Part shown: in pieces, positions 48,666 through 63,898 of the stretch
Layout of the letters: each line of letters begins with the position of its first letter
Numbering within the stretch: position 1 is the first letter of the stretch
NCBI GenBank assembly: GCA_963754655.1
Contig: CAVWGN010000001.1
Location: 2,688,001-2,752,000 of the forward strand
Source of the DNA: an uncultured Chlamydiae bacterium
Lineage (GTDB): Bacteria > Chlamydiota > Chlamydiia > Chlamydiales > Parachlamydiaceae
Length of the DNA: 64,000 nt
Direction of reading: 5' to 3'
Made by a program: the position numbers and the translations under genes
Notes under the pieces: generated by a model
What the model saw: the letters and a program-made list of their open reading frames with translations, nothing else
Told to the model about the DNA's origin: nothing
Database searches by the model: none

Positions 48666-51551
48666 ATGAATCATCTTGGTCAAATTCCCTCTAACTCAGT
48701 AACTCGTGATTCGACAAATCCGTGGTGCGAAAAATCTTCGAATGGAAGACGAAAACACAATCAAGATTCTTCATATAAGCATGATCAAAATGGAGAAGAA
48801 GAAACTCGGCTTGATTCCGAAGCTCGAGAAAAAACTAAGCTTTGTCAAAAAACGATCCATTTAAAGACTCCCGATATACAAGACAAAAATTCATCAGAAC
48901 ACCCTAACAAATCTTGGACAAAACAAGAGCAAGAATTAAGCAGAGGCAAAGACAAAACCAATAAAGCTTATCAAAGAATATATCCAACCGATTCCAACGT
49001 GGAAGAGAGGAGACCACTCAAAACAAAGGAGAGGGAAAGAGAGCAAGGGTCGTATTACGACAGGAGAGAGGGAGATGATTCTCGTGATAAAGACAATCAA
49101 TATCCATTCTCTAATCAGCGAAATTCCTCTACAAGAAGCAGGCAACCGGACGGGAACAAACACAATTCTTATCCTGTCAAATCTTCACTTATTTCGGTTG
49201 ATTTTCAATATCCCTCAAAAACCCCATCAGTGAATGCAAAAAGAGAAAGTTCAACAAATCAACGATCGGATCCTCGTTTGATTCCCTTCAATAAACAAAT
49301 AAATGCAGCTGCAAGAAATAATGACATTAAAAACTGCAAAAAAATTCTGACACAGATTGAGCAAGCTGGCTTAAGGCCGGATGCCTATTCTTACAATTCG
49401 ATTATTAACCTATTTGTTAGAAAACAAGATCAGACGAATGCTTACGCCGTCTTTGAAGAAATGAAAGCCAAGGAAGTACTTCCTAATGAGGTGACCTATA
49501 ATTCTTTAATCAATTTATTTGTGAAAAAAGAAGATGTGAAAAGAGCCTATGCCGTCTTTGAAGAAATGAAAGCCAATGGAGTGCTTCCCAATGTGGTGAC
49601 CTATACGTCTTTGATCAATTTATTTGTGAAAAAAGAAGATGTGGAAAGAGCCTATGCCGTCTTTAAAGAAATGAAAGCTAAGGGAGTGCTTCCCAATGAG
49701 GTGACCTATAATTCTTTGATCAATTTATTCGTGAAAAAAGAAGATGTGAAAGGAGCTTATGCCGTCTTTGAAGAAATGAAAGCCAATGGAGTGCTTCCCA
49801 ATGAGGTGACCTATACGTCTTTGATTAATTTATTTGTGAAAAAAGAAGATGTGACAGGAACTTACGCCGTCTTTGAAGAAATGCAAGCCAATGGAGTGCT
49901 TCCCAATGAGGTGACCTATAATTCTTTGATCAATTTATTTGTGAAAAAAGAAGATGTGACAGGAGCTTATGCCGTCTTCGAAGAAATGAAAGCCAAGGAA
50001 GTGCTTCCCGATAAGGTGACCTATAATTCTTTGATTAATTTATTTGTAAAAAAAGAAGATATAAAAGGAGCCTATGCCGTCTTTGAAGAAATGAAAGCCA
50101 AGGGAATACTTCCCAATGAGGTGACCTATACGTCTTTGATCAATTTATTTGTGAAAAAAGAAGATGTGACAGGAGCCTATGCCGTCTTTGAAGAAATGAA
50201 AGCCAAGGGAATACTTCCCGATGAGGTGACCTATACATCTTTGATCAATTTATTTGTGAAACAAGAAGATGTGAAAGGAGCTTATGCCGTCTTTGAAGAA
50301 ATGAAAGCTAAGGGAGTGCTTCCCAATGAGGTGACCTATAATTCTTTGATCAATTTATTTGTGAAAAAAGAAGATGTGAAAGGAGCTTATGCCGTCTTTG
50401 AAGAAATGAAAGCTAATAGAGTGCCTCCTGATGAGGTGACCTATAATTCTTTGAGCAATTTATTTGTGAAAAAAGAAGATGTGAAAAGAGCTTACGCCGT
50501 CTTTGAAAAAATGAAAGCCAACGGAGTGCTTCCCGATGAGGTGACCTATAATTCTTTAATCAATTTATTTGTGAAAAAAGAAGATGTGAAAGGAGCTTAC
50601 GCCGTCTTTGAAGAAATGAAAGCCAACGGAGTGCTTCCCGATGAGGTGACCTATAATTTTTTAATCAATTTATTTGTGAAAAAAGAAAATGTAAAAGGAG
50701 CTTACGCCGTCTTTGAAGAAATGAAAGCCAAGGGAGTGCTTCCCGATGAGGTGACCTATACGTCTTTGATCAATTTGTTTGTGAAAAAAGAAGATGTAAA
50801 GGGAGCTTACGCCGTCTTTGAAGAAATGAAAGCCAAGGGAATACTTCCCGATGAGGTGACCTATACGTCTTTGATCAATTTGTTTGTGAAAAAAGAAGAT
50901 GAGACAGGAGCTTACACCGTCTTTGAAGAAATGAAAGCCAAGGGAGTGCTTCCCGATGAGGTGACCTATACATCTTTGATCAATTTATTTGAGAAAAAAG
51001 AAGATGTGACAGGAGCTTACACCGTCTTTGAAGAAATGAAAGCCAAGGGAGTGCTTCCCAATGTGGTGACCTATACATCTTTGATCAATTTATTTGTGAA
51101 AAAAGAAGATGTGAAAGAAGCTTATGCCGTCTTTGAAGAAATGAAAGCCAAGGGAGTGCTTCCCAATGAGGTGACCTATAATTCTTTAATTGATCTATTG
51201 GTTAAGCTGGATTGTCTAGAACAAGCCGAGGTTCTCTTTTCTTCAAAACTTTCAATTAAAAAGCACATGCGTCAAGGTTCTTTAGATCTTCATGGATTAT
51301 CACATGGTGCAGCTTTTGTCGCTTTATCCATTTTTATAAAGTCTCACTGGGAAAATGATTCATTCTTGTTAATTACTGGAAAAGGGCTTCATTCTCACAT
51401 TAAAGATCTTTATCAGATGAGAGACTTTATGATGGAAAAAATAAAGGAAAAAATTCCTCATGTAATATGCCAAGTTGACCCAGAGAATAAAGGAAGGCTG
51501 ATCATTAATCGCAAGAAATTATCAGATTTTAATCAAAATGCTACTTCTTAA
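48666..51551 (+). CDS. PPR-Smr protein 1 (18 PPR motifs + half motif + Smr domain)
   Basis: 35-aa repeats EVTY(N/T)SLINLFVKKEDVxGAYAVFEEMKAxGVLP(N/D) at 49278-51167; Smr motifs LDLHGL, ITGKGLHS, NKGRL. Confidence 0.93.
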   Translation: MNHLGQIPSNSVTRDSTNPWCEKSSNGRRKHNQDSSYKHDQNGEEETRLDSEAREKTKLCQKTIHLKTPDIQDKNSSEHPNKSWTKQEQELSRGKDKTNKAYQRIYPTDSNVEERRPLKTKEREREQGSYYDRREGDDSRDKDNQYPFSNQRNSSTRSRQPDGNKHNSYPVKSSLISVDFQYPSKTPSVNAKRESSTNQRSDPRLIPFNKQINAAARNNDIKNCKKILTQIEQAGLRPDAYSYNSIINLFVRKQDQTNAYAVFEEMKAKEVLPNEVTYNSLINLFVKKEDVKRAYAVFEEMKANGVLPNVVTYTSLINLFVKKEDVERAYAVFKEMKAKGVLPNEVTYNSLINLFVKKEDVKGAYAVFEEMKANGVLPNEVTYTSLINLFVKKEDVTGTYAVFEEMQANGVLPNEVTYNSLINLFVKKEDVTGAYAVFEEMKAKEVLPDKVTYNSLINLFVKKEDIKGAYAVFEEMKAKGILPNEVTYTSLINLFVKKEDVTGAYAVFEEMKAKGILPDEVTYTSLINLFVKQEDVKGAYAVFEEMKAKGVLPNEVTYNSLINLFVKKEDVKGAYAVFEEMKANRVPPDEVTYNSLSNLFVKKEDVKRAYAVFEKMKANGVLPDEVTYNSLINLFVKKEDVKGAYAVFEEMKANGVLPDEVTYNFLINLFVKKENVKGAYAVFEEMKAKGVLPDEVTYTSLINLFVKKEDVKGAYAVFEEMKAKGILPDEVTYTSLINLFVKKEDETGAYTVFEEMKAKGVLPDEVTYTSLINLFEKKEDVTGAYTVFEEMKAKGVLPNVVTYTSLINLFVKKEDVKEAYAVFEEMKAKGVLPNEVTYNSLIDLLVKLDCLEQAEVLFSSKLSIKKHMRQGSLDLHGLSHGAAFVALSIFIKSHWENDSFLLITGKGLHSHIKDLYQMRDFMMEKIKEKIPHVICQVDPENKGRLIINRKKLSDFNQNATS

Positions 51552-63898: not shown

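Follow-up and report, generated by a model that had tools for sequence, protein, structure and literature searches.

In a stretch of DNA from an uncultured Chlamydiae bacterium (the window: 64,000 nucleotides, contig 1 positions 2688001-2752000 of a 3.16-Mb genome in two contigs), four large open reading frames (ORFs) of the same type lie between 48.6 and 63.9 kb, all on the plus strand; feature coordinates are given in window numbering unless a genome contig is stated. They code for pentatricopeptide repeat (PPR)-Smr proteins of a recently amplified, lineage-specific family, four members of which are found in the window, one of them broken. Fold and family, canonical code residues, retained RNA contacts, a distinct code order in each paralog and the structure of the locus could be read directly from the data. 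Our preferred reading, to which we give about an even chance of being correct, is that this code-reading family consists of RNA-directed binders or nucleases acting on host RNAs. A tract would hold single-stranded RNA in parallel register, each repeat binding one base, and the RNA so bound would be cut or blocked by the Smr domain, by analogy with plant SOT1. As a further step, the proteins might leave the bacterium, whose genome codes for a type III secretion system, and have eukaryotic host RNAs as their targets.

The four gene products are genuine P-class PPR proteins of the Pfam families PF01535/PF13041, with 17-18 repeats of 35 residues in the window and 13-18 repeats per array across the family. 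Pfam PPR_2 matched genes 1, 2, 3, and 4 with E-values of 1.2e-241, 4.6e-177, 2.2e-235, and 3.2e-226, in 15-18 stretches per gene (18 in gene 1 and 17 in gene 4), and gene 3 also matched NCBIfam TIGR00756 (E 6.5e-162, 17 stretches). In Tandem Repeats Finder, the four arrays had a period of 105 and 15.9-17.0 copies each; matches were 86-92% and indels 0%. A polar N-terminal region of about 210 residues is followed by the PPR tract and by a degenerate capping repeat, and about 90 residues at the C terminus form a further domain. No Pfam family matched the N-terminal region, whose composition suggests that it may be disordered. On the modelled structure, the C-terminal domain is a eukaryote-type (subfamily 2) Smr domain with both characteristic motifs: each of the four window copies has LDLH and TGKG in alignment A1 (a profile of 28 family members), and LDXH and TGXG are the two motifs of subfamily-2 Smr domains according to PMC3858433. 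The A1 profile matched the Smr domain of N4BP2 (2vkc, E 5.5e-5) and the plant PPR-SMR protein PAP2/pTAC2. An AlphaFold2 model of the Smr end of gene 3 had a mean predicted local distance difference test score of 91.1, and the first 12 ranks of its Foldseek search against PDB were all Smr domains (N4BP2/B3BP, PAP2, MutS2, and YdaL). In plants, SOT1 is described as an RNA endonuclease with sequence specificity, whose RNA cleavage requires its TGXG motif (PMC6662315). The genes and their parts were as follows:

48666..51551, plus strand: PPR-Smr gene 1 (ORF opens at 48645; paralog-conserved start, MNHL, at 48666)
49278..51167, plus strand: gene 1 PPR array, 18 repeats of 105 nucleotides
51168..51548, plus strand: gene 1 terminal degenerate repeat and Smr domain (LDLH, TGKG; Pfam below cut-off, alignment A1)
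51793..54574, plus strand: PPR-Smr gene 2, broken (the Smr part is a separate ORF, 54041-54574)
52402..54190, plus strand: gene 2 PPR array, 17 repeats, 16 of them readable in frame
57978..60866, plus strand: PPR-Smr gene 3 (ORF opens at 57966; conserved start at 57978)
58593..60482, plus strand: gene 3 PPR array, 18 repeats, with the sole TT and NT pairs
60483..60863, plus strand: gene 3 terminal repeat and Smr domain, the modelled segment
61112..63898, plus strand: PPR-Smr gene 4 (Pfam PPR_2, 17 stretches)
61730..63514, plus strand: gene 4 PPR array, 17 repeats
63515..63895, plus strand: gene 4 terminal repeat and Smr domain (Pfam below cut-off, alignment A1)

The base specificity of PPR tracts is read from residues 5 and 35 of each repeat. 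The proteins were cut in a 35-residue register set so as to have Asn or Thr as residue 5 and Asn or Asp as residue 35, and the pairs were taken from the DNA. An earlier note on this DNA had listed 18, 17, 18, and 17 pairs for proteins 1 to 4, and our reading agreed with it pair for pair:

Protein 1: ND NN NN TN NN TN ND NN TD TN ND ND ND ND TD TD TN TN
Protein 2: ND TN NN TD TN TD NN TD TD TN TD TN TD ND TN TD NN
Protein 3: ND TN NN TN TT NT NN NN ND TN NN TN TN TN ND TD TD TN
Protein 4: ND TD NN ND ND NN TD NN ND NN ND TD TN TN TN TN TD

The span that it had assigned to the repeats also fitted, position 49278 belonging to the first residue of repeat 1 of protein 1 and position 63514 to the last residue of repeat 17 of protein 4. 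Protein 2 needs frame correction, as had been claimed: 16 of its pairs are in frame, and the T and D of repeat 11 become visible after a frame change. TN, TD, NN, and ND make up 68 of the 70 pairs, the exceptions being one TT and one NT, both in protein 3. In the delineated PPR code, TN reads A, TD reads G, ND reads U, and NN reads C or U, and of the two remaining pairs, NT is a strong binder of C while A is bound by TT (Yan et al., 2019, PMC6468296). All 70 window pairs, TT and NT included, are thus combinations shown to bind bases.

The same held over seven arrays of the cluster, in which 109 of 113 readable pairs were canonical. Over the 105 internal repeats of the whole genome family, on which the codon, linkage and diversity counts given below are also based, position 5 was T in 58 repeats and N in 47, with nothing else, and position 35 was N in 58, D in 43, T in 3, and H in 1. 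The pair classes numbered 30 (TN), 28 (NN), 26 (TD), and 17 (ND), so that all four base classes are represented in balanced numbers; these four classes are the product of two nearly independent two-state sites. The residues that contact base and phosphate of the RNA are retained as well, with Val2 in 98 and Lys13 in 100 of the 105 repeats; both are reported to be required for RNA binding by designer PPRs (PMC4837458). The repeat scaffold is under purifying selection: the ratio of nonsynonymous to synonymous diversity (piN/piS) was 0.42 over the 105 repeats, and columns 4, 24, and 34 showed synonymous changes with zero amino-acid change.

In-register comparison of seven arrays confirmed that each paralog has a different code order. 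Code matches between paralogs numbered 2-8 of 13-18, and 17 of the 21 pairs fell inside the shuffle range; residual similarity of code order was found in the other four. Since the code orders are nearly shuffled and yet the paralog proteins are 81-84% identical to each other, each gene would carry a different address, and these data point to repeat-level recombination as the engine of new orders; they leave diversifying selection unproven. The repeats themselves are close to each other (median divergence 14/105 nucleotides, closest pair 1 nucleotide).

The codons suggested how the addresses change. At position 35, they were AAT (58), GAT (43), ACT (3), and CAT (1). At position 5, Asn was AAT in 47 of 47 cases, and Thr was ACA (28), ACG (22), ACC (7), or ACT (1); 57 of the 58 Thr codons (34/34 in the window) are therefore two substitutions away from AAT, and one-step intermediates are nearly absent, ACT occurring once and AAC never. 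The proposal of the earlier note that retargeting is mutationally cheap thus applied to position 35, where a single transition separates AAT from GAT, and failed at position 5. Because the Asn and Thr codons lie two steps apart with hardly any intermediates, both position-5 states look old. They appear to have spread by recombination, and retargeting appears to be repeat reshuffling rather than cheap point mutation. New specificities would accordingly be expected to arise mainly through whole-repeat reshuffling, or short conversion tracts among arrays, rather than through point mutation at position 5.

The strongest support for a special role of residues 5 and 35, as judged by sequence comparison, comes from relatives in which the same alphabets occur on scaffolds of 33, 34, and 35 residues. 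The A1 profile matched 36 of 400 sampled genomes of the phylum, the present genome (G000) included, several of them with tandem sets. In the relatives inspected, residue 5 was N, T, S, or A, and the last residue was mostly N or D. Genome G121 has homogenized 34-residue arrays (34 repeats) in which position 5 was N in 20, S in 10, T in 3, and D in 1, and the last position N in 23, D in 8, Y in 2, and A in 1; nearly all of its pairs are NN, ND, SN, or TN, and a pair that reads G is absent. G121 belongs to another family of the same taxonomic order, and two adjacent PPR-Smr genes with open frames of 783 and 849 residues lie on its contig 2 at 69000-77000 (L031). In a 33-residue array of metagenomic origin (P0038), columns 5 and 33 were the second and joint third most variable of 33, and G011, G399, Q1, and Q2 have diverged 35-residue arrays with the same alphabets at the code positions. 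A search with the Smr end gave 88 relatives among 1.84 billion representatives, and all 10 that were inspected came from metagenomes or metagenome-assembled genomes; when longer proteins were searched with a profile, no close and named relative was added. Genomes from other families of the taxonomic order, G301 (contig 52, 38058-42576) and G087 (contig 1, 1478735-1482907), also have PPR-Smr-type matches in tandem sets of three, and no ORF of these loci passed a filter on repeat period.

Several observations weigh against the reading of the family as code-guided binders or nucleases of host RNAs. The RNA target, the secretion signal and the host address are all putative. On the C-terminal domain, Pfam Smr scored 19.3 bits against a cut-off of 25.7, that is, below threshold, although the A1 profile match, the AlphaFold2 model and the Foldseek matches settle the identity of the domain. 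One of the four window genes and several copies outside the window are broken, so that not every copy is maintained. In nonsynonymous diversity, columns 5 and 35 rank 4th and 6th of 35 (the chance of two named columns both falling in the top six is about 0.025 by simple arithmetic), and values are higher in columns 18, 33, and 31 than in column 5 and higher in column 30 than in column 35. Column 28 is likewise constrained (K/Q/R). All polymorphic columns, 5 and 35 included, are nearly unlinked to the rest of the repeat, and neither linkage nor nearest-neighbor tests on the 105 repeats singled out columns 5 and 35 from the others. The pattern at residues 5 and 35 within this genome could therefore equally fit inherited repeat types reshuffled by recombination. 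The earlier note had taken the restriction to code-competent residues as suggesting selection on RNA recognition. The restriction is real, but it is not unique to these two positions, and since the polymorphic columns form unlinked mosaics and other columns are restricted or variable too, selection and neutral reshuffling are inseparable within this genome.

The alternative to which these observations lead is that the tracts bind RNA or another ligand without a meaningful address per gene, residues 5 and 35 being inherited two-state sites scrambled by unequal crossing-over and gene conversion, and the targets that they spell having no counterpart in biology. It would account for columns 5 and 35 being no more linked to the rest of the repeat than columns 1, 28, and 30, for other columns being equally or more variable, and for the two-step distance between the Asn and Thr codons, by which fresh switching is not visible; the mismatch tolerance of long consensus tracts would also agree with it. 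It explains less well why position 5 is confined to N and T in all 105 repeats and position 35 departs from N and D in only four, when column 18, of comparable diversity, holds more than six different residues, why distant relatives with scaffolds of 33, 34, and 35 residues show these alphabets again, and why the four base classes are used in balanced numbers. We consider this alternative rather unlikely.

The locus has an island-like, insertion sequence (IS)-ridden, birth-and-death structure. A search of the whole genome with gene 3 gave 31 matching places, and an island of 37.6 kb holds about nine PPR-Smr copies and fragments interspersed with IS elements. Beyond the window, the cluster continues at contig 1 2752114-2772005, where transposase-like ORFs interrupt it, with two intact copies on the plus strand, one intact copy on the minus strand, and several fragments. 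Six family copies have open frames of 795-970 codons (stop to stop), and the six full-length copies share 87-89% DNA identity over their 5' regions (blastn). Two divergent members (52% and 44% identity) lie elsewhere in the genome, and the longest ORF of one of them has no Smr motif. Among genomes of the same genus, the A1 profile and gene search gave zero family matches in G001 and G002 and one distant match only in G003. The genes flanking the cluster are about 1.3 kb apart in G002, as opposed to 37.6 kb here, and in place of the island G002 has a single ORF of 425 codons (contig 3; L041, 16518-17792), a counterpart of which was not found in contig 1, 2720000-2795000, of G000. The cluster is thus a young, lineage-specific island, given its absence from G001 and G002 and the proximity of its flanks in G002.

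Gene 2 carries six frame changes in total. Its N-terminal stretch 52125-52331 is in another reading frame, repeat 11 (about 53450-53560) contains three +1 shifts, and a shift near 54060-54099 introduces a stop and leaves the Smr part as a separate ORF. Judged from one assembly, these frameshifts may be real decay or polishing errors. Each copy is preceded by a conserved leader of its own, with a ribosome-binding site of normal bacterial type; a four-way alignment of the leaders showed a mean column identity of 77%, with a shared AAAGGTGG ahead of the start codon. Other elements of the locus, and one gene elsewhere in the window that bears on the lifestyle of the bacterium, were as follows:

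48168..48430, minus strand: 263 bp upstream of gene 1 that repeat the 5' end of a PPR-Smr gene in inverted orientation (blastn, 89.8% identity)
56330..57651, no strand assigned: 1.32-kb insertion sequence between genes 2 and 3 (blastn)
60867..61111, plus strand: intergenic leader common to the paralogs (matching stretches precede genes 1, 2, and 3)
30463..31929, minus strand: NTP/NDP exchange transporter (NCBIfam, E 1.7e-105)

The inverted copy was also matched, with stop codons, in the genome search with gene 3, and the insertion sequence has at least 10 further copies in the genome, with 96.7-99.0% identity.

The pair lists were also used to scan the genome of the bacterium itself on both strands of both contigs (3.16 Mb). 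Position matrices were built from the published code with probabilities of our own choosing, and 30 shuffled repeat orders per array served as control. For arrays 1, 2, 3, 4, 5, 6, and 8, the observed best score was reached by 16, 10, 12, 13, 15, 8, and 6 of the 30 shuffles, respectively. The earlier note had named best hits no better than those of shuffled orders as evidence against its predicted targets, and for the bacterium's own genome this was the outcome: none of the seven arrays (0/7) gave a site above the shuffled controls. Such a negative result fits an external target and does not show one. The scan has little power against shorter or mismatch-tolerant footprints, which is a further weakness of the preferred reading. 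With consensus scaffolds, tracts of 14 repeats are reported to tolerate mismatches more than tracts of 11, with 3' positions contributing less (PMC5861457); because long consensus tracts are mismatch-tolerant, the sharp target of 17-18 nucleotides proposed for each gene is to be taken as an upper bound. Two top matches lying 2 kb apart (contig 1, 49210 and 47273) were dropped as coincidence, one being antisense to an ORF of 1221 codons and the other inside a coding sequence, with no Rfam family.

The scan bears on a second alternative, namely that the proteins stay inside the bacterium and stabilize, process or cleave its own transcripts, like organellar PPR proteins. Such a role would agree with the normal ribosome-binding site and conserved leader of each copy, with a secretion signal that is putative, and with sites that are short or mismatch-tolerant, with which the scan is compatible. 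It is set against the lack of any site in the 3.16 Mb above shuffled orders for any of the seven arrays, and against the distribution of the family in the genus: with no match in G001 and G002 and only a distant one in G003, core RNA metabolism can do without it. Accessory genes are also a better fit to the island structure, the IS elements, and the pseudogenes. A role on the bacterium's own transcripts is therefore quite improbable in our judgment. A third possibility, that the cluster remains from a horizontal transfer, was amplified by recombination driven by IS elements and is now decaying and without function, would fit the six frame changes of gene 2, the fragments and IS insertions further along the cluster, and the interpretation of the Legionella longbeachae PPR-SMR genes as horizontal-transfer remnants by Liu et al. 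(2013, PMC3858433), but it is very improbable in view of the six copies with open frames of 795-970 codons, the piN/piS of 0.42 with columns 4, 24, and 34 changing only synonymously, the intact catalytic Smr motifs, and the conserved leader and ribosome-binding site.

Action on host RNAs would require a host and a route into it. NTP/NDP exchange transporters are a hallmark of energy-parasitic intracellular bacteria. A non-flagellar SctV/HrcV match in the genome (914.9 bits against a curated cut-off of 692.25) identified a type III secretion system; a match to the secretin model was below its cut-off. The chlamydial outer-membrane marker Chlam_OMP6 gave no match in a search whose control was silent throughout. 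Judged by the transporter, the type III system, and its size, the genome resembles that of a chlamydia-like, obligate-intracellular bacterium. The genes flanking the PPR-Smr genes are bacterial (glmS, lpxB, proS, prfB, and a LysR regulator), and these flanks, together with the 3.16-Mb bacterial genome, set the proteins apart from eukaryotic, organelle-targeted PPR proteins.

TAL effectors of Xanthomonas and Ralstonia consist of repeats that each read one base, their paralogs have different addresses, and their arrays evolve by repeat recombination. By analogy, the present family would share with them the idea of one repeat for one base. It differs in fold, and it would bind RNA instead of DNA; variation, which in TAL effectors is expected to be limited to the specificity residues, extends here to columns 18, 33, 31, and 30; and, unlike in TAL effectors, secretion and host targets are putative. 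A more far-reaching proposal, which we put forward tentatively and regard as possible but doubtful, is that the family is a natural RNA counterpart of TAL effectors: an injected PPR-Smr arsenal in which each tract is an address guiding the Smr nuclease to one nuclear or organellar RNA of a protist host, the addresses being remade by repeat recombination between paralogs in an arms race, and the device being in use, on scaffolds of 33, 34, and 35 residues, in roughly one in ten of the phylum's sampled genomes.

Among known proteins, the closest in architecture are the plant PPR-SMR proteins (SOT1/PPR53, GUN1, SVR7/ATP4, and pTAC2/PAP2), which have the same order of a P-class tract followed by a C-terminal subfamily-2 Smr domain. 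GUN1 is described as having both LDXH and TGXG (PMC3858433, PMC6662315), as is the case here, and chains of PAP2/pTAC2 were among the best structural matches (template modelling scores of 0.56-0.61 on the query). Unlike the plant proteins, the present ones are encoded in a tandem multi-copy island on a bacterial chromosome, their repeats are homogenized (the median of 14/105 nucleotides given above) with a far more canonical code, and they have the polar N-terminal region of about 210 residues without family match, and no organelle transit peptide. Identity to plant PPR proteins is only 19-34%, and the relationship of the Smr domain is remote. Designer and consensus PPRs (dPPR and cPPR; 5i9f, 5i9g, 6een, and 5orq) were the best PDB sequence matches of the repeat. 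Their repeats are likewise 35 residues long and nearly identical, with the base set by residues 5 and 35 and with Val2 and Lys13 kept; in contrast to these, the present scaffold is natural, with another consensus, extra variation at columns 1, 18, 28, 30, 31, and 33, and a nuclease-type domain attached.

Bacteria have been said to lack PPR proteins (PMC4029402). Legionella longbeachae, an amoeba-associated intracellular bacterium that, like the present organism, has PPR-SMR genes (PMC3858433, PMC11338181), is given as the one major bacterial exception for PPR-SMR in PMC3858433. By description, its genes are isolated transfer remnants, as opposed to the diversified family found here; in the accessible portions of the PMC open-access and bioRxiv literature, neither a code analysis nor a gene family nor homogenized arrays were found described for them. 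A 2026 paper reports PPR-like solenoids, predicted in two rhizobial type III effectors and joined to a unit resembling RNA-dependent RNA polymerase (PMC13667924). Neither a PPR-Smr family in chlamydiae nor its code was found described among PMC open-access papers and bioRxiv preprints; other papers may exist. PPR proteins are usually treated as eukaryotic; in the present bacterium a whole family is maintained and diversified, its code unusually clean and its nuclease-type domain intact, with relatives scattered through the phylum, as compared with the sole printed bacterial PPR-SMR case that we found, L. longbeachae. Should the proteins reach the host, theirs would be the first known case of bacterial effectors directed to host RNAs by a repeat code that can be read, and, if this is true, their targets would be predictable from sequence. 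They would also offer naturally optimized, highly regular PPR-nuclease scaffolds for RNA engineering; a review of PPR-SMR proteins calls for Smr domains of this kind (PMC6662315).

Further features were noted in and around the cluster. Between genes 2 and 3, at 55507-56148 on the plus strand, lies an ORF of 213 residues with a hydrophobic stretch and no Pfam, NCBIfam or PADLOC match; no PADLOC defence family was found for gene 3, for its Smr end, or for this neighboring ORF. The first two genes are flanked by short dispersed repeats (47719-48172, about 450 bp, and 54600-54920, about 320 bp); blastn with the query stretches that hold them gave 184 and 216 matches, with copies of up to 95-98% identity. 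Ahead of the PPR cluster, three large ORFs on the plus strand (24197-29775; 615, 486, and 428 residues) without NCBIfam match occupy the stretch of lowest GC content (0.35-0.37) and possibly code for lineage-specific proteins, and at 21963-23237, on the minus strand, is a TnpB of the IS200/IS605 family (RNA-guided endonuclease family, E 2.7e-106). Finally, in a fragment at contig 1 2758697-2759755, a different, hydrophobic N-terminal segment is joined to PPR repeats with NH pairs.

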